DNA of 64,000 nt from Rheinheimera sp. GTDB taxonomy: Bacteria; Pseudomonadota; Gammaproteobacteria; Enterobacterales; Alteromonadaceae. The notes beneath the pieces are model-generated. The model had not been told where the DNA came from. It ran no database searches and worked only from the letters and a program-made list of their open reading frames with translations. Position 1 is the stretch's first letter. Each line of letters begins with the position of its first letter. Position numbers and translations under genes: made by a program. Below are positions 7,460 through 22,017 of the stretch, piece by piece. The DNA lies in assembly GCA_008015325.1 (NCBI GenBank), contig SSFI01000056.1, positions 2,802 through 66,801 of the forward strand, read 5' to 3'.

Positions 7460-8653
7460 TCAATGGGCCGGCGCTGTGCTTTCTGAGCGCAATGGTTGCG
7501 CGGCGGTATCACCGCAGGCCACGCGGTTACGGCCTTGCGCTTTTGCCTGATACAGTGCCTGATCTGCCATTTCATACAATTGATTCCAATGCTGTAATGG
7601 TGCGACATCCGAGCTGGCATAACCGATACTGACGGTGACTTGCTGAGGCCCGGCAAATACTGCCGAGGCGATGGCTGAGCGGATTCGTTCACTGATGCAT
7701 TGCAGCTGTTGCCGGCTTACTTGTGGCAGGCAGACTAAAAACTCCTCCCCACCGATGCGAAACTGCAAGTCATAACCACGCAGTTCTGCCGCAGCGAGCT
7801 GACTCACTTGTTTGAGAACCTGATCACCACATTGATGGCCGAAGCGGTCATTGATTTGCTTGAAATGATCGATATCGAAGATGATCAGGCTGAGTGGTTG
7901 TTGTAAACGCACACTGCGATGCCATTCCGCCTGCAATCTGGCTTGTAATGACTGACGGTTCAGCCAGCCGGTCAGTGGATCGGTTTCCACTTGTTGCTGC
8001 AGCTGCAACGTTTTTTGCCGCACCAGCAGTAACATGCAGCTGGTCATGGCACACAGCATAAATAACAACACGGCCAGCGAACCGAAACTGTGTAATTCCT
8101 GATAATGCCCGGATTGGATAACTCCAACGTACTGTAGCAAGAAGACCACAAAGCGCAGACTCAGCTGCAACATGTTGGCGGCCATCACGACAAAAAATAA
8201 TATTACGGCACCACGCATTTGGGTCAGCCGTGCTTGCAACACACTGCGCAGCGTCAGTAAATTAAAGGCAATCAACAGCGGGAAGTTCAGTAATACCCTC
8301 ACTTCAATCCCTTCGCGGGCAAACGCCGTCATATTCAGAGAGTAGACTACCAGCAGTATGCCAAGCAGCTGGCTCAGCCGGACCGGTAGTTTCAGGTAAT
8401 GCCGAATACCACTGAAAAAGAACAGATAGGCGCTTACCAGCAAGAGGTTGCCGAGCGGCGGGCCCAACCAATAGGGCAGCGGCGTCAGTGTGTGGACAAG
8501 GCTCAATAACGAATTGGCAAAAAAGCTGGTACCCGCCAGAGCCCAGTGTGCGAGACACAGCTCATGGCGGTTGCTCAGATAAAGCCCAATCATCGCCAAC
8601 GCCATGATTGCTGCGACAGACAGATTGACAGTCAGTAGGGTCAGCACATCCAT
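7460..8653 (-). CDS. Membrane-anchored diguanylate cyclase (GGDEF)
   Basis: About 7 N-terminal hydrophobic helices; DPLTGWLNR, DIDHFKQIND, I-site RGYD, GGEEF. Start ATG 8653 preferred over 8680. Confidence 0.9.
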   Translation of the reverse strand: MDVLTLLTVNLSVAAIMALAMIGLYLSNRHELCLAHWALAGTSFFANSLLSLVHTLTPLPYWLGPPLGNLLLVSAYLFFFSGIRHYLKLPVRLSQLLGILLVVYSLNMTAFAREGIEVRVLLNFPLLIAFNLLTLRSVLQARLTQMRGAVILFFVVMAANMLQLSLRFVVFLLQYVGVIQSGHYQELHSFGSLAVLLFMLCAMTSCMLLLVRQKTLQLQQQVETDPLTGWLNRQSLQARLQAEWHRSVRLQQPLSLIIFDIDHFKQINDRFGHQCGDQVLKQVSQLAAAELRGYDLQFRIGGEEFLVCLPQVSRQQLQCISERIRSAIASAVFAGPQQVTVSIGYASSDVAPLQHWNQLYEMADQALYQAKAQGRNRVACGDTAAQPLRSESTAPAH

Positions 8654-8734
8654 TGCTATTATTTCCTGATTAAGGTCCAATCTACCCTAACATAAGGCGT
8701 CATTGGCATGCAATGACAGCACAGTCAAAAGCGT

Positions 8735-9718
8735 TTACTCAGCCCAGCGCGCCCGGATCTGCAGTATTTTTGGTAATTCCTGTTCGAGTAAATCCACCAG
8801 TCGCGGGTCAAAATGCCGGCCTTTTTGTGCTTGCAGATGGGCCATGGTGTCTTCAATACTCCAGGCGCTTTTGTAAGGCCGGGTGCTGGTCAGTGCGTCG
8901 AACACATCGCAAAGCGCCACGATGCGCGCTTCCAGCGGAATGGCTTCACCTTTGAGGCCATGCGGATAGCCTGTGCCGTCCCATTTTTCGTGATGATACA
9001 GCGCGACTTGCTGGGCAAGTACTAACAGATGCGAGTCGGCGTCGCCTAAAATCTCCGCGCCAATCAGCGGATGGCGCTGCATTTCGCGGAATTCCTCTTC
9101 AGTCAGTTTGCCCGGTTTTAGTAAAATGTCGTCGCGGATGCCGATCTTGCCAATGTCATGCATCGGCGCGGCATGTAATAAATCTTCGGCCCGTTTCGGA
9201 CTTAAACCATAAGCCAGCGCAATGACCTGCGAAAAATGACTCATGCGCAAAATATGCAGACCGGTTTCGTTGTCGCGATACTCGGCCGCGCGACCAAGCC
9301 TTTGAATAATCTGCAGCCGGGTCTTTTTCAGCTCGTCTGCCTGCACCAGTGACAAATGAGTTTTGACGCGGGCACGCACCACCGCCGGCGTAATCGGCTT
9401 GGTAATATAATCGACGGCGCCTACTTCAAAACCCTGAGTTTCATCGATTTCATCGCGCAGCGCTGTGACAAAAATCACCGGAATGTGTTGGGTCTGGCTA
9501 TCGGCTTTGAGCTTGGTACAGACTTCAAAACCGGTCATGCCCGGCATCATCACATCGAGCAACACCAGATCGGGCTGATGTTCGGTGGCCAGTTGCAGTG
9601 CTTCCTGGCCATTTTTGGCAAACAACAGGCGGTACAAGTCATTCAGCACAGTGCGCAACACCCGCAGGTTGGTCGGTTCATCGTCGACCAGTAAAATGAC
9701 TGGTAAATCCTCGGTCAT
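8735..9718 (-). CDS. Response regulator with HD-GYP phosphodiesterase domain (RpfG-like)
   Basis: REC (LLVDD, LLDVMMP) plus MHDIGKIG and HHEKWDGTGYP; ATGA overlap with the upstream kinase. Confidence 0.93.
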   Translation of the reverse strand: MTEDLPVILLVDDEPTNLRVLRTVLNDLYRLLFAKNGQEALQLATEHQPDLVLLDVMMPGMTGFEVCTKLKADSQTQHIPVIFVTALRDEIDETQGFEVGAVDYITKPITPAVVRARVKTHLSLVQADELKKTRLQIIQRLGRAAEYRDNETGLHILRMSHFSQVIALAYGLSPKRAEDLLHAAPMHDIGKIGIRDDILLKPGKLTEEEFREMQRHPLIGAEILGDADSHLLVLAQQVALYHHEKWDGTGYPHGLKGEAIPLEARIVALCDVFDALTSTRPYKSAWSIEDTMAHLQAQKGRHFDPRLVDLLEQELPKILQIRARWAE

Positions 9719-12700
9719 AGGTGTTCTCCGCCAGCCAGTTGCGGCAATAGCTGCTGCAGTTGTTGCTGGGCCTTGCTGAAATCAAAATCGTTAATGAGAC
9801 TGCAGATTTGTTCCACTTCTTGCTGGTACGGCCCGTGATAGGCCTCCAGTTCAGTCAGTCGCAGCTCATCCAGTTCATGGCGTACCAGCGCGCTTTGCAG
9901 CGCCGTTAAAATCTCTGCTAATGCCGCGGCGCTGGCCGGCGCTGTGGCGACAGCCTGATCGGCCGACTGCTGTTGCAGCAACTGCTGATACTCAGCATCA
10001 AAGCGTGGCCAGCAGTGCAGAATTTTATGCAGCAAATCAGCGCTGCGCTGCTGTTGTTGTTGCCGGGCGGCCTGTTCCAGTTCGGCACAGACTTTGGCTA
10101 AAGGTTCCAGTGCCAGGTTGCCGGCGACACCTTTAACGGCATGCGTCACCTGCTGAATGGCGGCAAAATCACTGTGTTCCAGCGCTTGTTGCAGTTGCTG
10201 TAACGCCTGGCCTTGTTTGTCGAGGAACTGGCGCAGCGAGGGCAGATAACGGCCAAAACTGCCCCACAGCTGCAGTGCTTTGCCAGTATTGATTAGCTGC
10301 TCAGTGCCGGCTGCCGCATTGCTGAGATCGGCCAGCGGCGCTTGTACTTCAAGCTGCAGCACCCGTGCCATTTCATAACAAAGCACAGGGAAATCAATAG
10401 GTTTACTGGCAAAACCCTGCATGCCGGCTTGTTGCGCGGCCGCTTTGTCTTCATCCAGCACACTGGCGGTCAGTGCGATGATCGGAATGGCGCTGCGGCC
10501 TGTGTCCTGCTCCCACTGGCGCAGCTGACGACAAGCCCCAAGGCCGTCCAGCACTGGCATCTGGATATCCATCAAGATCAGGTCCGGCTGGTGTTGTTTG
10601 GCGAGTACAACTGCTTCTGCCCCGTCGACCGCGCTATACACCTGATGGCCGGCTCGGGCCAACAACAGGCTCAGCAGTTCGAGGTTTTGTGGAATATCAT
10701 CGGCGATTAATACCCGCAGCGGCGGCAGGGCAGGTGCTTGCGAGCCATAGCTGCTTTGCGCCGGCGCCTGGCCTGCAGCAAGCGGAATGACAAAACTGAA
10801 AGTGCTGCCAACACCAGGCTGGCTTTGCACCCAAATACGCCCGCCCATCAGTTCGACCAGCTGTTTACTGATGGTCGTGCCAAGACCTGTACCGCCAAAG
10901 CGCCGACTCATCGAGGAATCGGCCTGGGTAAAGGCTTCAAAAATCTGCTCCAGCCGTTGTGGTTCAATACCGATGCCGCTGTCGCGGATATCAAATTGCA
11001 CCATGTTGCCGGACATCGGCCGCACGGTCACAGTGACGCCGCCAAGCTCAGTGAATTTAATTGCATTGCCAATCAGGTTGGTCAGAATTTGCCGCAAGCG
11101 GTCGGCAGCACCGTGGTAAAACTCACCCAAATCTGCGGCCAGATCCAGCTGCAGCGTCAGCTGTTTTTTCCGCGCCTGGATCCACAGAGTTGATACCACA
11201 TTGTCCAGCACTGCCGGCAGCGAGAAATCCTGCAGGTCCAGTTCCAGTTTGCCTTTTTCCAGTTTGGCGCTGTCGAGAATGTCGTTGAGCAAATGCAGCA
11301 ACGAATGGGCAGAACTGTGAATGGTCGACAGATGTTTTTTCTGCTCCGGTGTTAATTGCGAGCTGAGCAGCAGGTCGCTGAAGCCGATGATGGCGTTCAT
11401 CGGTGTGCGGATCTCATGGCTCATATTGGCCAAAAAGCTGGCGCGGGCTTCAGCGGCCAGTTCGGCTTTATCGCGGGCGTCGCGCAGTTCAGTTTCCATC
11501 TGTTTGCGCGCCGTGATGTCCATGATAAAACCATCCAGCCACTGGATATTGCCTTGGTCGTCAAACACCGGTTCACCTTGTTCTAAGGCCCAGTGCACAG
11601 TGCCGTCGCGGTGCACAATGCGGTATTCGACATGAAAGCCCTGGCGGAACAGCGCCGGGTCCTGCAGTTGCTGCGCATCGTCCGGATGGATGACTTCGAC
11701 CCAGCTACGTTTGCGCTCCGGCAGCATAAAATCGCTGGCTGGATAACCGGAAATACCTTCGATGGCGTCGCTTAAAAACAACATGTCCCAGCTGTCGTTA
11801 AACAGACAACGATACGCTGCGCCGGGGATATTACTAATCAGCGAACGGTACTTGGCTTCATTGTCTTTCAGCGCCTGCTCCATCTGCTGGCGGACGCGCA
11901 GGTCGGTGATAAAGGCGACAAACAAATCTTCACCAGGCAGCCGGACATGACCGATTGCCAGCCGCACCGGCACGGGATGACCGTTTTTGTGTACTGCGTT
12001 GACGTCGCGGCCAACACCGATAATTTTCGCATCGCCGGTCTGGAGGTAGCGCGCGAGGTAAGAATCATGTTCAGCGCGGATTGTACCCGGCGTCAGGATA
12101 TTCACGTTTTGCCCGAGCAATTCCTGTTGCTGCCAGCCGAGGATTTGCTCCGCAGCTTTATTCATACTGAGGATTAAACCTTGCGCGTTGATAGTCACAA
12201 TGCCGTCAACGGCGGTATCCATCATCGCCATCAGCCGGCGTTCGTTCGTCATGGCCCGTTCACTGGCGTCGCGGAATTTCAGCAGCAGATTGACCGCTAC
12301 CACCAGCGCACAAATCATCAGCGTGGTGAAGGTTATGGCCATCGCGAGCTCAAGCGGGGCTTCGCCGGCTTGTTGCAGTGGGATAAAACCGGACGGCGGC
12401 ACAAAACGCGCAGCGGCCATGCCGGTGTAATGCATCCCGGTAATAGCGCCGCCCATCACCAGGCTGGCGAGAATCGTCAGCAAGAACGGCGGAATGCGCA
12501 GGCGTTTTAAGCCAAAACGCACCCACAGCGCCAGCACGGCCAGCACCACAGCAACCAGAATAGATAATAAAAACATCGGCAGGTCGTAGCGCAGCGCGAC
12601 GGCCATGTCCATCGCGGCCATCCCGGCATAATGCATAGTGCCGATGCCGGCACCGACTAAGACACCACCCAATAACAATTGCGGCAGACTCAGGCGTTTT

Positions 12701-13053
12701 TTACTGATCAGGTCCAATGCCACCCAGGACGCGGCGATGCTGGGTAACATCGATAAAAAGGTGAGGCCGGGCTGATAACTGACTTCAGTACAAAGCGCAA
12801 ACGCCAGCATGCCGATAAAATGCATCGACCACACACCGCCGCCGAGCGCAATACTGCCACTGGCCAACATCAGCATCCGGTAACTGTGGCGTTGCATTTT
12901 TACTGCCTGCGCCGTGACATGCATCGCTATCGCCGAGGCCAGCACGGCAATCGCAAAAGACAACAACACCAAACCCGGCGTATAGCTGCCATTTAGCAGC
13001 AGCGGATCTGCCGGATATTCAAACCACTGTAAAAGCCATTGCAACAACAGCAC
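9715..13053 (-). CDS. Hybrid histidine kinase MHYT-PAS-PAS-HisKA-HATPase-REC-HPt
   Basis: MHFIGM/MHYAGM/MHYTGM repeats, two PAS domains, [10 protein letters not shown]-box, GGTGLG G-box, LMDIQMP REC, HAVKG HPt. Exact start uncertain. Confidence 0.92.
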
Positions 13054-13121
13054 CTCCGCCTGAATTGAGTTGTGGTCAGCGCCACGGCCTGATTATGTCA
13101 CAGCGGCTGTGCATCCACGGA

Positions 13122-15992
13122 TTAATTACCGGCCTGCACGACCTGGTCGCGGCCCTGAGCTTTGCCCTGATACAGTGCTAAATCGGCCGCTTTCACCGCC
13201 TGTTCCAGTGCGTCTGATTGCAAGGCCACGGCGCTGATGCCAAAAGTGGCGCTGAGCGGCGCCGGCAAGCCCCGCAGTTGCAATTGCCGGATGCCAAGCC
13301 GCAGTTCCTCCACCAGGCTGCTTGCTTGTTGCACATCGGTTTGTGGCATTAACAACAAAAATTCTTCGCCACCCCAACGCGCAATTAAGTCCTGGCCACG
13401 CAGTCGTTGTTTCAGATAAACCGCCACCGCTTTGAGCACGGCATCGCCGGTGTCATGACCGTGTTCATCGTTGATTTTTTTGAAATGATCGATATCCATC
13501 AGCACCAGAGTCAGGGCTGCCGGTGAGCGGCTGCGTTGCGCCTGTAATAAGACTGCGGCCGAATACAAAGCGCGCCGGTTTAACAAACCGGTCAGACTGT
13601 CGGTGTTGGATAATAATTGCAGTTGCTGATTGGCCAGTTCCAGTTCGGCGGTGCGCTGCGCGACCAGCAGATCCAGCGTGGCGGCGCGTTGTTGTAAGCG
13701 CCGGGTGCGTAAATGATACAACAGCCCCAGTACCAGCACCGTGCCGATGCAAAGGAGGGCGATACCAAGCGGGCGCTGCCAGAACGGCACCGGCACCTGT
13801 AGTAGCAAAGGCCGGGTCTGGACAAACTGGCCGCCGGCCTGCGCCATCACTTCCAGCCGGTGCTGGCCCGGACTGAGCTGACTTAAGGTCAACACTGCGT
13901 GCTCGCCGAGCGCAGTCCAGCTTTGCTCCGCATGCCAGCGGAAAAAATATTGCACGCGCAAATGGGGCTGAAAGGCCAGCAACTTAAACTGCAGCTGCAG
14001 CTCTTCAACTTTTTCCGGTAACAGAATGCTGCCTTTGCTTTCTGCCACATGAAATAACTGCCGGTTCAACCGCATACTGGTCAGGTGTAACTGCATTGAG
14101 GACGGCACCGCCGTCATATCCACCGGACTGAGCTGCCACAAGCCACTGCTGGTCGCGAGCTGCACCAAATCGCCATCAAGTGGGCTGATCCCCCGCAGCT
14201 GCGCACTGCTGAGATCAAGCCCTGGCCTTGCCGCAAGCAGATGTAAATTGCTGCCATCCGGGCTGAAACTCAGCACACCATTGCGGGTCAGTACCCAGAC
14301 AATATCCCCGCTGCGGGTCATGCCAATCACTCGCGGGTCCGGCAAGCCTTCCGCCTGACCGAGCAGTGAAAAGGTCTGCCGGTCTGGCTGCAGGCGAATA
14401 AGGCCTCGATCGGTACAGAGCCATAACAAGTCTTCGACCGGCAACATACATTGGAAATAGCCGGTGGCGAGTTTGTTGTCAGGTTGCCAGCGTAAGCTGA
14501 TTTTGTCGGCCTCGCCCTGATACAATTTGCCCTGCCGGCTTAATAACCACAGCCGTTGCTGCGCATCGGTCTGAATATCGACAATGCCTTCCTGCGCCTG
14601 CACGTCGGTTTGCAGTTGCACAGGCTGCCAGTCGGCGACCGGCAGCCTCGCTGCTTCAGCACCAATCCGGTACACGCCTTGTTCCCACAAGCCTAACCAT
14701 AAAGCGCCGTCTGCGGCGATAGCCATCCGTTCGATATTAAAACGCTTGGTGTTGAGCTCAAGTGGCAGCGGCACAAACTGATTGTCGCTGCTGAGCTGAA
14801 ACAAGCCCTGATCGGTGGCGGCCAGCGTGTAGGCGCCGAACTGCACCACATCGCGCACATAAGCCACCGGGCTCGCGGCGTCAAAACTCAGTTCACGCCA
14901 TTGGCCCTGCTGCAGCTGCAACAAGGATTTTTCCAGGGCCTGCCAGCGCGTATTGGTGATGGAAGGCGGACCTAGCCGGTGCTGTTGTTTTGGATTCAAA
15001 TAAGTGCTGATGGCAGGTTCAATCGGCCGGATCGCCGGGGCTGGCAGCATTTGCAGGCCGTTATTGCGGCTGGTCAGCCAGATTTGGCCGCGCCGGTCCC
15101 GAAAGATTTTGCGGATATCAACGGCGCTTTGCAGCAGTTCGGTGTGCAGTTTGCCAGCGATGAGGCTTAACCGGAACAGGCCATCGATGGAGCCAATTAA
15201 CCAGCTGCTGGCGGATTCAGCCAGGATCGCGTTGGGATTACCGACCCCGACCTGTTGGAGCTGATTGGGCTGTGCTAAATCCAGCAGATATAAGTGAGAG
15301 CGCAGGCCGACGAATAAATGCTGGTCCTGCGCGGCGACAGTGCGGATCTCCTGGTCACGAAATTCAGCCTGTTGCAGCCATTCGCCTTGCGCTGTTGGCG
15401 TTGGCGGCAAGCGATACAGGCCTTTGGAAGTAGCAACCCACAAGGTGCCGTCGTCCTGTTCGGTCAGTTGCCAGATGCGCTGGCCGGCGAGCGGCTGCCA
15501 CAGTTCGGCCTGCAGATTGTCCGGGTTTAACTTAAACAGCCCTTCGGTGGTGCCAATCCATAACACCTGTTGGCGGCTTAAATATAAGGTCTGGACCCGG
15601 GCATTATCTGGCAGCGGTGTACTGACCTGCTGCCAGTGCTGGCGCTGACTGTCGAGCCGCCACAGGCCATTGCCCCAGGTGCCGACCCACAGCTGATTGC
15701 GTTGGTCGCTGACGACCTGACTATAACTGACGGCGCGGCGCGGGCCCGGTGGCAGAAAACGCAGATATTCCTGGCCGTCATAGCGCAACAGACCTTCAAA
15801 CTCCGCGGCCAGCCAAAGAAAATCTTGCTGGTCCTGCGTCACGCCGTACACCACGCCCGGTACGTTTTGTGGCAGTTCCACTGTGGTTGCCGGCGGCGTC
15901 ATGGCTGCAGCATTTCCGCAGTGCATCCAGCCACCACACAACAAGGTGAGCAGGAGCATCAAACAAGTCAGGCGCTGGCAGCAATGCAACAA
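13122..15992 (-). CDS. Ligand-binding beta-propeller sensor (Y_Y_Y-type) diguanylate cyclase
   Basis: Signal-like N-terminus, repeated LW(V/I)GT blades, one TM helix, DSLTGLLNR, RGQD I-site, GGEEF. Start may be ATG 15959. Confidence 0.88.
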   Translation of the reverse strand: MLHCCQRLTCLMLLLTLLCGGWMHCGNAAAMTPPATTVELPQNVPGVVYGVTQDQQDFLWLAAEFEGLLRYDGQEYLRFLPPGPRRAVSYSQVVSDQRNQLWVGTWGNGLWRLDSQRQHWQQVSTPLPDNARVQTLYLSRQQVLWIGTTEGLFKLNPDNLQAELWQPLAGQRIWQLTEQDDGTLWVATSKGLYRLPPTPTAQGEWLQQAEFRDQEIRTVAAQDQHLFVGLRSHLYLLDLAQPNQLQQVGVGNPNAILAESASSWLIGSIDGLFRLSLIAGKLHTELLQSAVDIRKIFRDRRGQIWLTSRNNGLQMLPAPAIRPIEPAISTYLNPKQQHRLGPPSITNTRWQALEKSLLQLQQGQWRELSFDAASPVAYVRDVVQFGAYTLAATDQGLFQLSSDNQFVPLPLELNTKRFNIERMAIAADGALWLGLWEQGVYRIGAEAARLPVADWQPVQLQTDVQAQEGIVDIQTDAQQRLWLLSRQGKLYQGEADKISLRWQPDNKLATGYFQCMLPVEDLLWLCTDRGLIRLQPDRQTFSLLGQAEGLPDPRVIGMTRSGDIVWVLTRNGVLSFSPDGSNLHLLAARPGLDLSSAQLRGISPLDGDLVQLATSSGLWQLSPVDMTAVPSSMQLHLTSMRLNRQLFHVAESKGSILLPEKVEELQLQFKLLAFQPHLRVQYFFRWHAEQSWTALGEHAVLTLSQLSPGQHRLEVMAQAGGQFVQTRPLLLQVPVPFWQRPLGIALLCIGTVLVLGLLYHLRTRRLQQRAATLDLLVAQRTAELELANQQLQLLSNTDSLTGLLNRRALYSAAVLLQAQRSRSPAALTLVLMDIDHFKKINDEHGHDTGDAVLKAVAVYLKQRLRGQDLIARWGGEEFLLLMPQTDVQQASSLVEELRLGIRQLQLRGLPAPLSATFGISAVALQSDALEQAVKAADLALYQGKAQGRDQVVQAGN

Positions 15993-16664: not shown

Positions 16665-19307
16665 TTAGAACTTCACGGTATAACGCAGCGTCCAGTTGCG
16701 GCCTAACCAGTCGTGGATCGAGCTGGCATAACCGTTGGTTGGAGAGGATGCATAAGGTGGTTCTTTGTCGGTCAGGTTACGTACCGCGAACTGGATATCC
16801 TGTTTGTCGGTGATGTTGTAACCGATACTGGCGTTTAAGGTCAGCCAGGATTTGACGGTTTCATTGTCAAACTTGAAGTCACCATCGCCGAGCGAGCTGA
16901 TGTAGTGCGCGCTGAAGCTGACATTCCAGTCCTGCAGTTCCCAGTCAATCGCCGTGTCGCCGACAAATTCCGGCCGGGCGATTTCGCTGGCGCCACTGAG
17001 TTTACCCAGTAAATCTTCGGCCGGGTCGTCTGCCGTCAGCTGACGCTCGTAGCTCAACGTGCGGGTGCCGGCTAAGGTCAGGTTAAAACGGCCGGCGCTG
17101 CTGTCGAAGCCGTATTTGACTTTGGCGTCGATGCCGTCAGTTTCCTGAGCGCCGACGTTAAAGAAACCGGTGCGCAGGAATACCAAATCACCGCCGCTGT
17201 CTTTGACACAACCAAAAGCGCCGTTCAGGGCGGCTTCGTTAGTCACAGTCGGAGCCGTGCCGGCGAGACAGGCTTTTAACGTAGTGTTGGCGTCCACATC
17301 AACGATATCGGTGTGCTCATAACGCCAGTAATCCACAGTGATGTTGAAGTCGTCGGTCAGGTTCCAGGAGACACCGGCGTTCCAGGCTTCGGAGCTTTCT
17401 GCATCCAGCCCGCGGTTGCCCTGCGTTTCCTGGTCAAATTCCAGTTCTCCGGCCTGAGCACCGAAGCTGCCGCACAGGCCGTTATATGGTTTGCCGTTGC
17501 CACAATCGATATAGTTAGAACCTAATGAAGTACCAGCGCCGAGTTCAGACAAAGACGGCGCGCGGAAACCGGTGCTCCAGCTAGCGCGCAGAATTAAATC
17601 GTCAGTCGCTTTGTAGCGCAGTGACACTTTCGGGTTGGCATCACCACCAAAATCGCTGTAATGGTCATACCGCAGGGCAGTGATCGCATCCAGTTGCTCG
17701 GTCAATGGCAGGTTAAACTCCGCATAACCGGCATATTGCGTGCGGTCGGCGGCTGCATCGCTGGCGCCTAAGGTACTGACCAAACCTTGTTGGGCCACTA
17801 AAGCTGGCCGGTCGAAAATATCTTCGCTGCGCCATTCCCCGCCAAATACCGCGCTGATTGGGCCGGCTGGCAATTCACCGAGCTGACCGCTGAAGTTAAA
17901 GTCCCAGGATTTGACGTCCGATTCACCGACCCGTGGCGCCAGTTCACGCAAGCCGGCCAGCACTTCAGGCTTGGTGTCGCGGCCCCCATTATCACGACCA
18001 AGGTTAAACGGATTAAACTGGCCGCTGGCGGTCGCAGCTGCAACGCGGTCCAGGTTGAAATAACCGCTGGTATGTAACACTTCATTGTCGGATTTGCCGA
18101 TAGTCGCTGCTGTTTCCCAGCGCCAGCTGTCGCTGCTGCCAAACAAAGTGGTTTCACCGCGAAGGCCCGCCAGCAGGCGGTAGCTGTTGCTGTCATATTC
18201 CTGCATCCGCACTTCCGGATAACGGGAGCGGATGCGGATAGTGCCAACAGAGCCGTTTTTGGCGTCAATATCGCGGACCCACTGCGGCACTGAGCTCAGC
18301 GAACCCGGCACGCGCAGGTCAAAAGAGCCGGCCGAATCATAGGAATGGCCACTGTTTTGCTGAACCATAGCTTCAACAAAGAGTTCATTGTCACCACCGA
18401 GGCGATAGATATGGTTCAGCGTGGCGCCGAGGTTTTTACTGTCCGGCTGAATCGCCCGTTCCATCACATAGTCATATTGGCAGCGGGTGCCGCCGTTGCT
18501 GGTTGCGGTGCCACACCAAGGTTCAGCATAGTCTTTGCCGTCAATAGTGACGCGGGTTGACGATTTAAAAGTCACGTTGATCGGGCGATCTGCATTCATT
18601 AGCGCATCGCGGTCGAAGTAATCCAGCACCACAGTAGTGTTGGAGTTTTCCGTGGCAAAACCACCGGTATAGGTGAAGTTTTTGCGGGTGAAATCGCTAT
18701 CGGCACTGTCATCGCCATACATGGCGCTGATTTCCTGACCTTCATAATCTTTTTTCAGGATGAAGTTGATGACACCTGCGATAGCGTCAGAACCATAGAC
18801 TGAAGCGGCGCCGTCGGTCAGCACGTCGATGCGCTCAATTGCCGCCATCGGAATAGCATTGACGTTAACAAAAGAATCAAAGCCGTTGGAGAAAGAGTCA
18901 ACCGCGACGCGACGGCCGTTCACCAGCACCAGTGTGGAGCTCGAGCCCAGACCACGTAAACTGACGCCGGCCGCGCCCGGTGGGGTGCCGTCTGAACCAC
19001 CGACGTTGCCGTTTTCAGTGAAAGTGCCGGCGCTGGCGGCTTGCGGCAGGTCACGCAGGAAGCTGGCGACATTGTCGTAGCCTTTGTTAATCAGCTCTTC
19101 AGCAGTGAAGACCTGCAGTGGATTGGCGCCTTCCATGTCAACGCCTTTGAGGCGTGAACCTGTGACTTCAATTTTTTCGATTTTTTTCTCGGCATCCGCC
19201 TCAGCTGTTGCCGCCGGGGCTTGTTGGGCCTGAGTGCTGAAAGCCAGCAATAAAGCGCTGTACAGGGCTGATTTACGGATCATCGCTGCTGATGTCGTTG
19301 CGTTCAT
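16665..19307 (-). CDS. TonB-dependent outer-membrane receptor
   Basis: Signal peptide, EKIEVTGSR TonB-box region, plug motifs (LRGLG, LVLVNGRR, IERIDVL), C-terminal GRNWTLRYTVKF with terminal Phe; SD AGAGGA. Confidence 0.95.
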   Translation of the reverse strand: MNATTSAAMIRKSALYSALLLAFSTQAQQAPAATAEADAEKKIEKIEVTGSRLKGVDMEGANPLQVFTAEELINKGYDNVASFLRDLPQAASAGTFTENGNVGGSDGTPPGAAGVSLRGLGSSSTLVLVNGRRVAVDSFSNGFDSFVNVNAIPMAAIERIDVLTDGAASVYGSDAIAGVINFILKKDYEGQEISAMYGDDSADSDFTRKNFTYTGGFATENSNTTVVLDYFDRDALMNADRPINVTFKSSTRVTIDGKDYAEPWCGTATSNGGTRCQYDYVMERAIQPDSKNLGATLNHIYRLGGDNELFVEAMVQQNSGHSYDSAGSFDLRVPGSLSSVPQWVRDIDAKNGSVGTIRIRSRYPEVRMQEYDSNSYRLLAGLRGETTLFGSSDSWRWETAATIGKSDNEVLHTSGYFNLDRVAAATASGQFNPFNLGRDNGGRDTKPEVLAGLRELAPRVGESDVKSWDFNFSGQLGELPAGPISAVFGGEWRSEDIFDRPALVAQQGLVSTLGASDAAADRTQYAGYAEFNLPLTEQLDAITALRYDHYSDFGGDANPKVSLRYKATDDLILRASWSTGFRAPSLSELGAGTSLGSNYIDCGNGKPYNGLCGSFGAQAGELEFDQETQGNRGLDAESSEAWNAGVSWNLTDDFNITVDYWRYEHTDIVDVDANTTLKACLAGTAPTVTNEAALNGAFGCVKDSGGDLVFLRTGFFNVGAQETDGIDAKVKYGFDSSAGRFNLTLAGTRTLSYERQLTADDPAEDLLGKLSGASEIARPEFVGDTAIDWELQDWNVSFSAHYISSLGDGDFKFDNETVKSWLTLNASIGYNITDKQDIQFAVRNLTDKEPPYASSPTNGYASSIHDWLGRNWTLRYTVKF

Positions 19308-19502
19308 GGGTATTCCTCTGGATCAAATTGTTGCTTAAAAGCAATCTGCATTGGATTGTTCAGAAAAACGACACAGAGGGGGCCGCACAGGCAGATCCGG
19401 AGTGACACGCTCGGACAGATCATCAATAACCAGGTGCTGCCATTGCAGGGAGTGCGCAACAACAGGCGGATTATTGCCGTAAAGCCGGGATCTGTGGGGC
19501 GA

Positions 19503-19523
19503 CCCTCTGCGTCAGGCAGAGGG
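19503..19523 (-). promoter_or_regulatory. GC-rich hairpin right after leader peptide 1 (pause/attenuator candidate, no U-tract)
   Basis: Minus-strand CCCTCTGC-ctgac-GCAGAGGG, 8-bp stem with 5-nt loop, starting 4 nt after the UAG. Confidence 0.7.
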
Positions 19524-19527
19524 GTGG

Positions 19528-19602
19528 CTAATTATTAAACCACTCGGACAGGTAGTAAGGAGAGTAACGGTAGTTGCTCAGGTTGACTGCGCATTTCAAC
19601 AT
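19528..19602 (-). CDS. 24-aa leader peptide 1, MLKCAVNLSNYRYSPYYLSEWFNN, upstream of the TonB-dependent receptor
   Basis: Manual translation; strong SD (AAGGAGGAGAGTC-ATG); TAG stop; 17/24 identical to the ORF at 21791-21865. Confidence 0.85.
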   Translation of the reverse strand: MLKCAVNLSNYRYSPYYLSEWFNN

Positions 19603-19728
19603 GACTCTCCTCCTTTGGGTTTGGCAGCGGCCCAGTATTGGCATCGCGCTGCTTTGGGGTTATTCGGGGCTATTCAGCATTTGGGCCAGCCCAACCGGAC
19701 CAGCACAGCCTGAAAATCGGCTTGCTTT

Positions 19729-19759
19729 TCAAACTGTCTGATCCGGCAAAAACTGTCAA
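19729..19759 (-). promoter_or_regulatory. Putative sigma70 promoter/operator for leader 1 and the receptor
   Basis: Perfect TTGACA (19759-19754), 17-nt spacer, weak -10 CAGTTT inside the imperfect palindrome TCAG-acagt-TTGA. Confidence 0.45.
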
Positions 19760-19792
19760 GCGGTTTTTTTTCACCTCATGCACATCGAATGC

Positions 19793-21625
19793 TTAGCGAT
19801 TGATTTGCAGATAAAAATTCTGATAAGAACAATAATCTGTCACCGGATCCACTTGCGAATAAGTACCAAGGGCGGCCCGGCTGTCGGGCTGTTGCTGCAG
19901 TACCAGCTGTGCCTGCGCTGCCAGGCCTTCGGCCCGGGCTTGCCTGCTGCGGCACAGTTGCAGCGCCAGCTGCCGGTAATTGTCACCTGTCAGGATGTCG
20001 TTGTTTTTCAGTACGCTGGCGGAAGTATCCGGCACTTTCACTGGCTTTTTCCAGGGGGCAAACTGCAGGGTCAGCTCGCCGTTATGCAGCAATGCCTGGT
20101 CATCCCGGCTCAGGTAGTGGGTGCGCACACCGCTGATGGTCCAGGCCGCGCCGCTGTCTTTGGCCTTAGCGCCGGCGAGATCGGCGATATAAACACCTGA
20201 TGCACCAAGCACAGCAAAGCGGGCGTTGTTTGGGGCTGTCGGATTGAAGCCAACCAGCAGGGCAGTGGCTTCGTCAACGCCAAAACCGTAGCGGGTTTGG
20301 GTATCGCTTAATAGCCTTACCAGCCTTGCTTCGCGGCCACGTTCGGAAAAATGCGTGTCGGTGACACCAAAGGGGAATAAACCCAGGCCACCCTGGGCCC
20401 GGTAAGTCAGCTGGTCTTCGGCCAGTTCAGCAGGGCAGCTGTGATTTTTTTCACAACCAGCCAGTGGCGCCTCTGCCGGCACAGCGCCGCTTTGCAGTGC
20501 CTGAGCGCTGCTGCCATTGCTGATCATCGGCACTGTTTTTTCGGTAAAGCGGCCGCCGGCTTGCACCGCAGTACCCGCGCTGGTGCCGGCGACAATCAGC
20601 TTGCCTGCCTGCAGCCGGGCAGTGATGGCCTTCAGTTCCGGGCTGGCGCTGCCGTCTGGCAGGCGCAGCGCTTGCAACGTCAGGCTTTGGTCGCCGCCGT
20701 TAAAAAAGATCGCATCGGCTTGTTCAATTTGCGCGACTGCAGCGGCCGGGCCTTGCTGGCAAAAAGCCTGCAGATCGGCGAATAAATCCGGATAGACCGC
20801 AGCGCGGTTGTAGCTGCCGTGGATGTCAGCGAGGTACTGCGGTAATTGCTCACAACTGGCTTTGCCGGCGGTTTTTTGCTGTTGTGCGGCCTGATACGCG
20901 GCGTTCAGCGGTAACCAGCGCGCCTCGGCACCAGTCTCGGCAAAAGCGCTTTGATAAAAATCTACCGCGGCCAGCGGGTCACGGCTGGATGCTGTGACCA
21001 CCAAAACTACAGGCTTCCCCGGTTTTTGCCGCACTTTGCCCGCCAGTTCAGTGATTTTCTCGTAGATTTCGACACTGAACTTGTCTTTAGTCTGCGCCAG
21101 ACTGGCCTGTTCACGCTGGCGTTGTTGTTGCGATAGCTGCGGCTGCTGCAGCAGGTCAAACATCAGGTTCAGCTCCAGTTCGGACAGCTGCTGATACAGC
21201 GTTTCGCCTCTGATGGTCTGACCGGCCAGTTCAACTTTGGCCAGCCGTAAGCGTTGGCGCAGTTCCTCTTCAGTCATGGCCTTGGTGCCAAAATCCAGTA
21301 TCAGCTGACTGAGGATGGCTTGTGTTTGCTGGCGCTGTTCAGCCCGGCTTTCTGGCCACACTGCGGATTGGCTGATGTCACGGATGCGGGGCAGGCTCAG
21401 CGCGTACAGTTCGGTGCTTTTGGTATTGGCGGCAAACTGCGGATTGTCGCTGCAGGAAGATCGGCTTTGCGAGCTGCAGGTATGCAGGCCACCACCGACT
21501 AACACCATTGAATATTCAGGAAATTTCGTAGAAGCAGTTGCAGCAGACGCGGCGCTGCAAAGCGCAAGCGCCGGCAGCAATTTCGGCAACACTGGGCTGA
21601 AAGATCGTTTCATTTTAAGGTCCAT
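19793..21625 (-). CDS. Secreted cyanophycinase (peptidase S51 family)
   Basis: Signal peptide; LVGGG, IFFNGGDQ, GTSAG (catalytic Ser), DTHFSERGREARL (His), GVDEAT (Glu). Start 21625 or 21613. Confidence 0.87.
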   Translation of the reverse strand: MDLKMKRSFSPVLPKLLPALALCSAASAATASTKFPEYSMVLVGGGLHTCSSQSRSSCSDNPQFAANTKSTELYALSLPRIRDISQSAVWPESRAEQRQQTQAILSQLILDFGTKAMTEEELRQRLRLAKVELAGQTIRGETLYQQLSELELNLMFDLLQQPQLSQQQRQREQASLAQTKDKFSVEIYEKITELAGKVRQKPGKPVVLVVTASSRDPLAAVDFYQSAFAETGAEARWLPLNAAYQAAQQQKTAGKASCEQLPQYLADIHGSYNRAAVYPDLFADLQAFCQQGPAAAVAQIEQADAIFFNGGDQSLTLQALRLPDGSASPELKAITARLQAGKLIVAGTSAGTAVQAGGRFTEKTVPMISNGSSAQALQSGAVPAEAPLAGCEKNHSCPAELAEDQLTYRAQGGLGLFPFGVTDTHFSERGREARLVRLLSDTQTRYGFGVDEATALLVGFNPTAPNNARFAVLGASGVYIADLAGAKAKDSGAAWTISGVRTHYLSRDDQALLHNGELTLQFAPWKKPVKVPDTSASVLKNNDILTGDNYRQLALQLCRSRQARAEGLAAQAQLVLQQQPDSRAALGTYSQVDPVTDYCSYQNFYLQINR

Positions 21626-21790: not shown

Positions 21791-21865
21791 ATGCTGAAAA
21801 ATGCCTTTGCTTTAAGCTCATATCACTACTCGTCCTACTACCTGTCGGAGTGGTTTAACGAGTAG
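21791..21865 (+). CDS. 24-aa leader peptide 2, MLKNAFALSSYHYSSYYLSEWFNE, upstream of yfcC-iadA
   Basis: Manual translation from ATG 21791 to TAG 21865; same length as leader 1 with invariant YYLSEWFN. SD is weak (GGTAG). Confidence 0.82.
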   Translation: MLKNAFALSSYHYSSYYLSEWFNE

Positions 21866-21869
21866 ATCT

Positions 21870-21894
21870 CAGCCAGACATCCGCTGTCTGGCTG
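21870..21894 (+). promoter_or_regulatory. Hairpin right after leader peptide 2 (pause/attenuator candidate, no U-tract)
   Basis: CAGCCAGACA-tccgc-TGTCTGGCTG, perfect 10-bp stem with 5-nt loop, starting 4 nt after the UAG. Confidence 0.7.
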
Positions 21895-22017
21895 GCGTCT
21901 GTTACGCCACCTCCAATGATCACACAATGCGATTGTTTATTGCGTCAATGCACGCTGTGCTGGTCTGAATCCTTGTTGATCTGGCTTTGGTGCCAGTCGT
22001 AATCCACAGGTTAAATT

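Follow-up and report, generated by a model that had tools for sequence, protein, structure and literature searches.

Alternative RNA pairings downstream of a conserved leader peptide suggest a translational attenuator at a TonB-dependent receptor gene of Rheinheimera

How could a reading frame of only 24 codons, separated from the next gene by an untranslated spacer of 220 nt, control the translation of that gene? The question is raised by a 64,000-nucleotide stretch of DNA from Rheinheimera sp. (contig SSFI01000056.1; the whole stretch is called the window below), in which a short open reading frame (ORF), leader-1, stands before the gene of a TonB-dependent receptor. Leader-1 (19528..19602, minus strand, as are all features below unless stated otherwise) consists of 24 codons and TAG (MLKCAVNLSNYRYSPYYLSEWFNN; ATG at 19602, TAG at 19530-19528) and has its own Shine-Dalgarno sequence (SD), AGGAGG, at 19614-19609. 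The receptor, which would be the regulated gene (16665..19307, ATG at 19307-19305), is a protein of 880 aa with the Pfam domains Plug (E = 8e-19) and TonB_dep_Rec_b-barrel (E = 2e-43). Leaders of this family fall into two types: the NN type, which includes leader-1, precedes TonB-dependent receptors, and the NE type, which includes a second leader of the same locus (leader-2), precedes yfcC or other TonB-dependent receptors. We propose that the spacer is a four-segment translational attenuator similar to that of ermC, with a double lock, on which the ribosome acts at the stop codon of the leader; we give this proposal as a whole about an even chance of being correct.

The proposal starts from a repeated motif. 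CCCTCTG occurs at 19523-19517 and again at 19380-19374, while its complement is found as CAGAGGG at 19509-19503 and as CAGAGG at 19320-19315; an earlier note on this DNA had listed these positions, and all of them are right when read on the minus strand. We made 20000 dinucleotide-preserving shuffles of 19308-19502: 3.0% of them had another copy of the 7-mer, 0.085% had CAGAGG within the last 20 nt, and the two features coincided in 0.005%. The region also folds more stably than shuffled sequences, with z = -3.8 for 331 nt and z = -5.3 for 503 nt. In the proposed mechanism, segment 1 would be the 5' arm after the UAG, segment 2 the loop and 3' arm of the hairpin formed there, segment 3 the second CCCTCTG together with the T-run that follows it, and segment 4 the SD region of the receptor (19305..19320: CAGAGG at 19320-19315 with the SD core GAGG at 19318-19315, a 7-nt spacer, and ATG). 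Because segment 3 resembles segment 1, and segment 4 resembles segment 2, the pairings 1:2, 2:3, 3:4 and 1:4 are all possible.

Pairing 1:2 forms the hairpin P1 (19503..19523), in which segment 1, CCCTCTGC (19523-19516), is joined by the loop CTGAC (19515-19511) to the 3' arm GCAGAGGG (19510-19503). In the window, P1 starts 5 nt past the stop and has a predicted dG of -15.1 kcal/mol. A stable hairpin of about -9 to -20 kcal/mol is found 0-5 nt past the stop in distinct loci, with few exceptions, and P1 is retained by RNAalifold with compensatory changes at 5/7 pairs (we used two alignments, A1, a global MAFFT alignment of 30 regions, and A2, a 41-sequence alignment of the 3' module). The post-leader hairpin described in the earlier note is real: it covaries, and it keeps its place in nearly all loci. 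Toeprinting has established that a ribosome with UAG in the A site shields ~10 nt past the stop; since P1 starts within 0-5 nt, a ribosome at the leader UAG would have to melt P1 and hold its 5' arm.

Pairing 2:3 forms an alternative long-range helix, P2. Its 5' strand (19492..19513) comprises the loop bases GAC and segment 2 (19513-19503), GCC at 19500-19498 and CACAG at 19496-19492, and its 3' strand is segment 3 (19370..19390, CTGTG-C-GGC-C-CCCTCTGTGTC), which holds the second CCCTCTG and also provides the core of the anti-SD. The core of P2 is 11 bp, GACGCAGAGGG (19513-19503) with CCCTCTGTGTC (19380-19370), and it lengthens to ~19 bp through GCC paired with GGC (19384-19382) and CACAG paired with CTGTG (19390-19386), so that the 6-8 bp earlier assigned to the pairings understated this one. 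The extension covaries by eye, CACAG:CUGUG becoming GACAG:CUGUC in lineage L010 and CAAA:UUUG in L011. As P1 and P2 share segment 2, they are mutually exclusive.

To follow P2 beyond the window, we took from each of >60 distinct NN-type spacers, from several genera, the 14-nt interval most complementary to its own P1. In most of these loci the best complement is found 55-67 nt ahead of the receptor ATG; its partner is the P1 loop together with the 3' arm, and its dG is -15 to -25 kcal/mol, compared with a median of -6 to -9 kcal/mol for other intervals. The sequence of segment 3 varies by lineage (CCCCUCUGYGUC, CUUCUUGCUCUGGC, CUCUGACUAGUGGC, UUUGACGCA, UUGGCACAGC) yet fits the P1 of its own locus. 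A fixed-column count of 2:3 gave a modest signal (71% paired; 6/500 shuffles), and alignment-free tests were adopted because the variable middle region was misaligned. Since intervals picked by complementarity to P1 would make a test of P1 against segment 3 circular, we defined the zone by position alone (start-90 to start-46) in 18 lineage representatives and permuted the lineages. Cognate P1:zone duplexes average -24.0 kcal/mol, compared with -17.6 ± 0.9 kcal/mol for permuted ones (p<5e-5), and the same permutation shows no effect for P1 against two control windows. Thus the 3' arm and loop of P1 co-evolve with the zone of the second CCCTCTG, which had been named beforehand as the alternative partner of the 3' arm.

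The same zone is matched to the ribosome-binding site of the receptor. Directly 3' of segment 3 in the Rheinheimera and Alishewanella lineages is a T-run; in the window this T-run zone is GTTTTTCTG (19361..19369), which lengthens the anti-SD, UUUUUCUG being pairable with CAGAGGAA of the binding site when G-U pairs are included. At the receptor ribosome-binding site, CCAGAGGAA is kept in most lineages. Cognate duplexes between zone and SD window average -14.1 kcal/mol in the 18 representatives, compared with -11.7 ± 0.5 kcal/mol for permuted ones (p<5e-5), whereas control windows against the SD show mostly no effect, one of them (ctrlB) being marginal (p = 0.047). The duplexes take in the SD core plus flanks that are specific to the lineage: CUUAUUCG:CGAAUAAG plus CCUC:GAGG in L012, CGUUUUU:AAAAAUG in L014, CGUUCUCUG:CAGAGGAACG in L019, GCUUC..CUCUGG:CCAGAGGAAGC in L027, ACGCAUUUUUaCUG:CAGAGGAAUGUGU in the Alishewanella type and CGCAUUUCCU:AAGGAGUGCG in the Permianibacter type. 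This match by lineage assigns the T-run to the anti-SD. An earlier cross-group look at 3:4, with intervals chosen by P1 complementarity, had been negative by eye and is superseded by the position-defined permutation. P2 and the anti-SD pairing share at least 4 nt of the zone in 18/18 representatives (manual comparison of coordinates). P1, P2, the match between anti-SD zone and binding site, and the mutual exclusion of P2 and anti-SD pairing are all supported by these computations.

Two other candidates at the binding site were set aside. For a few close relatives the GGATC element (19400-19396) gives the best duplex with the SD, but L008 and L011-16 do not have it, and it carries no pairing mass in the ensemble. 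By inspection, the binding-site and loop sequences have no ANGGA cores of CsrA-type sites.

To see how these helices would respond to a ribosome, we folded the RNAs with helices enforced and with stretches masked. When P1 is enforced, the SD is predicted to pair mainly with the zone of segment 3 and the T-run in 13/17 representatives; with P2 enforced and the first 10 nt past the stop masked, the zone:SD pairing vanishes. Enforcing P2 while segment 1 is masked makes the binding site cheaper to open in 16/17 representatives, by a mean of ~3.6 kcal/mol. When the footprint of a ribosome at the stop is masked, 28/30 NN-type RNAs show a lower opening cost (mean -2.5 kcal/mol), while masks in mid-leader and on segment 2 change it by -0.4 and +0.4, respectively.

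In the RNA of the window itself, P2 is part of the minimum-free-energy structure, and the equilibrium ensemble consists of P2 (probability 0.98) with the 5' arm of P1 paired to the SD (0.75), rather than the intact hairpin with an SD masked by the second copy that the earlier note had taken as the default. The two folds are nearly equal in energy: the P2 fold has -76.1 kcal/mol and the P1-enforced optimum, P1 plus segment 3 paired to the binding site, -74.3 kcal/mol, a gap of 1.8 kcal/mol. The barrier between them is estimated by findpath at ~12 kcal/mol, an upper bound on the true barrier, and P1 dominates co-transcriptionally until the 3' end of the transcript reaches about 19371. The SD is paired in both folds, and the predicted unpaired probability of segment 4 is about 0-0.08 in every ribosome-free state.

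How, then, would a ribosome at the leader stop reach the receptor start? With no ribosome at the stop, the RNA would be in one of two near-isoenergetic folds, P1 + 3:4, formed co-transcriptionally, or P2 + 1:4, favored at equilibrium, and in either fold the SD would be hidden in a G+C-rich CCUCUG:CAGAGG helix, with the two CCUCUG copies acting as interchangeable guards. A ribosome held at the UAG would cover segment 1 and so remove one lock directly; segment 2, left free, would capture segment 3 as P2 and remove the other. The SD would then be left with a weak, G-U-rich contact to the U-run alone, and 30S subunits could start on the receptor mRNA. According to these models a ribosome at the leader UAG probably exposes the receptor ribosome-binding site, and we infer that the output of stalling is ON.

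Several results weigh against this mechanism, the first of them from the window's own RNA. When 19527-19515 is held unpaired, as the earlier note had suggested, or when the full footprint is masked, P2 persists and the SD is not freed: it moves to the T-run, GUUUUUCUG (19369-19361), with a probability of 0.67-0.81, the upper value belonging to the fold with 19527-19515 unpaired. (This shift upon masking of segment 1 implies that the anti-SD is wider than CCTCTG.) Masking at the stop lowers the opening cost of the window RNA by just 1.2-1.4 kcal/mol, and in one computation on this RNA the predicted change had the opposite sign; the earlier claim that the switch exposes the SD is supported by the lowered predicted opening cost in the representatives, while the predicted gain in the window RNA is small. 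The evidence is mixed for the claim that the second CCTCTG masks the SD. The zone is matched to the binding site by lineage, but covariation of the 6-bp CCUCUG:CAGAGG helix (3:4) is not significant (205/500 shuffles), and that of 1:4 is absent (500/500 shuffles) although the segments are pairable in 89% of cells. Moreover, the SD variants CUGAGG and CCGAGG lack compensatory changes at the core, and the 3:4 duplex gives weak z-scores against single-sequence shuffles, mostly not significant. From A1 and A2, RNAalifold recovers P1, a second hairpin (P4) and a small helix within the leader ORF, but neither P2 nor 3:4. Because of the kinship among the lineage representatives, the permutation values (p<5e-5) overstate independence. 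Finally, NE-type leaders, including leader-2, show no consistent predicted unmasking of the SD (mean +0.2 kcal/mol).

The proposed mechanism has a ribosome held at the UAG, and here the leader peptide itself is informative. By similarity and pattern searches, the leader is present in 32/36 sampled genomes of the genus and in 42/401 genomes of the family, a reversed control pattern giving no matches; it occurs in at least 119 public-genome stretches from at least 5 genera, among them Rheinheimera, Alishewanella, Alkalimonas, Arsukibacterium and Permianibacter. The C-terminus YYLSEWFN[N/E] is invariant while its codons differ synonymously, most loci encode a peptide of 24 residues, and TAG ends the frame in 60/61 loci, which were gathered without any constraint on the stop codon. 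An invariant peptide of fixed length ending at UAG points to arrest of termination of the kind described for SpeFL, and we infer from the sequence that YYLSEWFNN together with UAG, which is decoded by RF1, would arrest termination. In the proposal, a metabolite of the cyanophycin / beta-Asp-Arg pathway would modulate the arrest. Hairpin-stimulated readthrough or recoding at the stop was considered and rejected, as the frame 3' of the TAG is unconserved and broken by indels between lineages.

The leader peptide has no match in Pfam (E up to 10) or NCBIfam (E up to 1), no homology to any described arrest peptide family in the profiles of these two databases, and our literature search found no description of such a leader upstream of TonB-dependent receptors or cyanophycinase loci. 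No described family matches either the peptide or the RNA. A broader suggestion, which we put forward tentatively and regard as rather doubtful, is that the peptide belongs to a so far undescribed family that arrests at the stop codon in response to a small molecule (arginine, aspartate or the cyanophycin-derived beta-Asp-Arg dipeptide would be plausible) and, by way of the double-locked four-segment switch, turns on the translation of TonB-dependent receptors, and elsewhere of transporters, in Rheinheimera, Alishewanella, Alkalimonas, Arsukibacterium and Permianibacter.

It is instructive to compare the proposed attenuator with known systems. In the erm and cat systems a leader ORF is followed by segments that pair as 1:2 and 3:4 or as 2:3; segment 4 contains the SD of the downstream gene, which is freed when a ribosome stalls on segment 1. 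Like ermC/ErmCL (also cat and cmlA), the present locus has a short translated leader ORF with its own SD on the same strand and mutually exclusive 1:2 and 2:3 pairings. Unlike ermC, however, it would have the ribosome at the stop rather than at an internal sense codon, an antibiotic is an unlikely trigger, a structured domain occupies the ~120-190 nt that separate segment 2 from segment 3, the SD has a further possible partner in segment 1 (the double lock), and the regulated gene is the TonB-dependent receptor of a nutrient-uptake locus; the leader has no sequence relation to ErmCL. In SecM-secA, MifM-yidC2 and VemP-secDF2, a stalled ribosome melts a helix that hides a downstream SD, and long peptides are released by a pulling force that the secretion machinery exerts. 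The window's equilibrium pairing of segment 1 with the SD has the same two-strand design, but a leader of 24 residues probably stays inside the exit tunnel, which makes release by force unlikely. The locus resembles trp-type attenuators in its leader ORF, in hairpins that exclude each other and in the U-run that follows one alternative helix, yet its leader has no run of a single regulatory amino acid with a compact terminator after it, the helix before the U-run is long-range, and the U-run zone is matched to the binding site.

The closest likeness on the side of the peptide is to TnaC-tnaA, a tryptophan sensor, and SpeFL-speF, an ornithine sensor, which also have short leaders with a C-terminus that is conserved up to a conserved stop; at the present locus, arrest is predicted. 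TnaC of Escherichia coli has 24 residues and contains WFN. TnaC arrests at UGA through inhibition of RF2 (PMC8450073). SpeFL arrests at a UAG stop through a block of RF1; its leader ORF ends in a hairpin, and Rho terminates transcription a little further on (10.1101/604074). It shares with leader-1 both the UAG and the position of the hairpin. The known output of SpeFL and TnaC is the masking of a Rho loading site rather than an SD switch, and they control catabolic or metabolic operons.

This precedent supplies the first of two alternatives of similar standing, also named in the earlier note: Rho-dependent attenuation of the TnaC/SpeFL type, in which P1 would mainly be a pause hairpin for RNA polymerase that keeps transcription in step with translation of the leader, Rho would load on the spacer once the ribosome leaves the UAG, and the stalled ribosome or the structure it induces would prevent termination. 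The tract 3' of P1 in the window (19502-19440) is C-rich and G-poor, and the 220-nt spacer is untranslated, as such a mechanism would want. By reading of the sequences, however, the C-rich tract is unconserved elsewhere (the spacer of L014-17, for instance, is U-rich), tight structure is predicted over most of the spacer and would disfavor Rho loading, and the co-evolving contacts of P2 and the anti-SD are left unexplained. We consider Rho-dependent attenuation unlikely as the explanation of the locus, but it could act together with the translational switch.

Improbable in about the same measure is passive coupling without arrest. In this case each passage of a ribosome would melt P1 and briefly allow P2, translation of the receptor would track that of the leader, and the peptide would be conserved for some other reason. 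The RNA logic indeed needs occupancy of the stop by a ribosome and not a long arrest, and the possible pairing of the leader SD with codons 12-15 would offer a further place at which leader translation could be set. Against this, the nine invariant C-terminal residues with synonymous variation, the length of 24 codons in most loci and the UAG in 60/61 loci are the signature of a nascent-peptide effect at termination, and the estimated barrier of ~12 kcal/mol suggests that P1 usually re-forms from its adjacent arms after a brief passage.

A third alternative would reverse the logic of the switch: P2 and the U-run could be a long-range intrinsic terminator and P1 its anti-terminator, so that stalling would free segment 2, P2 would form as RNA polymerase arrives at the U-run, transcription would end ahead of the receptor gene, and the gene would be OFF. 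The resemblance of a U-run directly 3' of P2 to an intrinsic terminator is a further point against our ON assignment; the 3' strand of P2 lies 0-6 nt from the T-run in most Rheinheimera and Alishewanella lineages despite differing P2 sequences (CCCCUCUGYGUC-U5, UGACGCA-U5), and P2 is strongly favored once segment 3 is transcribed. But with about 130-190 nt between its strands the stem would be atypical of an intrinsic terminator, and a scan of 19200-19900 for promoters and terminators returned no match, with no compact G+C-rich hairpin followed by a U-tract; the sole helix at the U-run is the long-range P2. No U-run follows P2 in L012/13/174 (UUAUUCG), L019/20, L146/158 or Permianibacter, and one Rheinheimera lineage has 5-6 nt between the helix and the run. 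Lineage by lineage, the T-run zone is complementary to the flanks of the binding site, a property for which a mere U-tract has no use. We consider the terminator a distinctly improbable explanation.

That there is no switch at all, the hairpin being an mRNA-stabilizing or processing element and the motifs chance pyrimidine and purine tracts that resemble anti-SD and SD, is in our view very improbable and already disfavored, for although the SD pairings are short (6 bp), any CCUC-rich tract pairs with an SD and the shuffle z-scores of 3:4 are weak, the joint shuffle probability is 5e-5, the position of the P1 partner is kept in most of >60 loci, and both contacts are cognate-specific where most control windows are not.

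If the translational attenuator is confirmed, it would bring a new sensor family and an SD guarded by two interchangeable anti-SD copies, and it would open a direct route to the inducers of poorly understood receptors and of the YfcC carrier. To our knowledge, only a handful of metabolite-sensing peptides act by arrest at a stop codon: TnaC, SpeFL and, as the inverse case, PepNL. Leader-peptide switches that expose an SD are best known from antibiotic-resistance genes and secretion monitors; here, if the proposal is true, a ribosome-based metabolite sensor would serve nutrient uptake across the outer membrane. The >60 natural variants, which have the same geometry but different segment sequences, are ready-made compensatory mutants.

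The spacer contains two further conserved hairpins. P4 (19330..19347, AGA-TTGCT-TTTA-AGCAA-C) lies between the T-run and the SD and is the sole helix that RNAalifold retains in the 41-sequence alignment of the 3' module. With compensatory changes at 4/5 pairs (UUGCC:GGCAA, UCGCC:GGCGG, CUGCC:GGCAG, CCGCC:GGCGG), it has the strongest covariation in the region, and its 5' flank AGA is conserved in most of the 41 sequences. In the modeled folds an anti-SD:SD helix would enclose P4, which could be a binding site for a protein or small RNA. The inner hairpin (19396..19415, TCCGAG-CGTGTCA-CTCCGGA; columns about 277-295 of A1) lies inside the domain enclosed by P2. Its loop CGUGUCA(A) is conserved in many Rheinheimera lineages, the rest of that domain being highly variable, and its stem shows compensation by eye (UCCGAG/CUCCGGA, CCUGAG/CUCAGG, CCUGAG/CUUAGG, UCGAG/CUCGG). 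The Rfam covariance models gave no match at gathering score anywhere in the 64-kb window.

At the receptor start, many orthologues (L005-L017, L038, L040 and others) have a second in-frame ATG 6 nt 5' of the start, directly after the SD (GGAATGnnnATG), where the window has GGAATACCCATG (19313-19305) without the second ATG; translation in those species may actually begin two codons away.

Within leader-1, the SD/start region GGAGAGT (19604-19610) can pair with ACTCTCC (19559-19565) in codons 12-15, and the L019 lineage has an analogous but different pairing of the leader SD, AGAGCAAT with ATTGCTCT. In a fixed-column count this pairing is formed in 60%, but one slid control is higher.

Leader-2 (21791-21865, plus strand; 24 codons, MLKNAFALSSYHYSSYYLSEWFNE, and TAG) is a paralogue of leader-1 in divergent orientation. 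A hairpin, CAGCCAGACA-tccgc-TGTCTGGCTG, with a dG of about -20 to -22 kcal/mol, stands 5 nt after its stop (within 21791-21900, plus strand), and a second hairpin 3' of the leader, CTGGC/GCCAG, adjoins the SD of yfcC. In several NE-type loci the best partner of P1 is just 12-45 nt before the start, and the logic of this type may differ from that of the NN type. NE-type leaders at L034, L037, L050 and L056, from other genera or species, precede proteins with the Plug domain of TonB-dependent receptors, which ties the leader family to receptors generally and not to yfcC alone.

The neighboring genes suggest a putative cyanophycin-scavenging locus. On the plus strand, leader-2 is followed by yfcC (NCBIfam equivalog, 700 bits) and a beta-aspartyl peptidase gene (iadA equivalog, 498 bits); on the minus strand, 21625-19793 encodes a cyanophycinase-like S51 protein of 610 aa, whose TIGR02069 score of 91 bits is below the cut-off of 126.6. 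Upstream of leader-1, the stretch 19693-19776 has a TTGACA hexamer (19759-19754) and a long inverted repeat with core arms at 19705-19716 and 19726-19737, which RNAfold lengthens to ~22 bp. Several further species of the genus have this stretch with 76-83% identity, and it may be a promoter/operator or a 5' RNA structure. Downstream of the receptor gene, 7460-15992 holds a signaling gene cluster that encodes a GGDEF protein with Reg_prop repeats, an MHYT-PAS hybrid histidine kinase, an HD-GYP-like HD_5 response regulator and another GGDEF protein.

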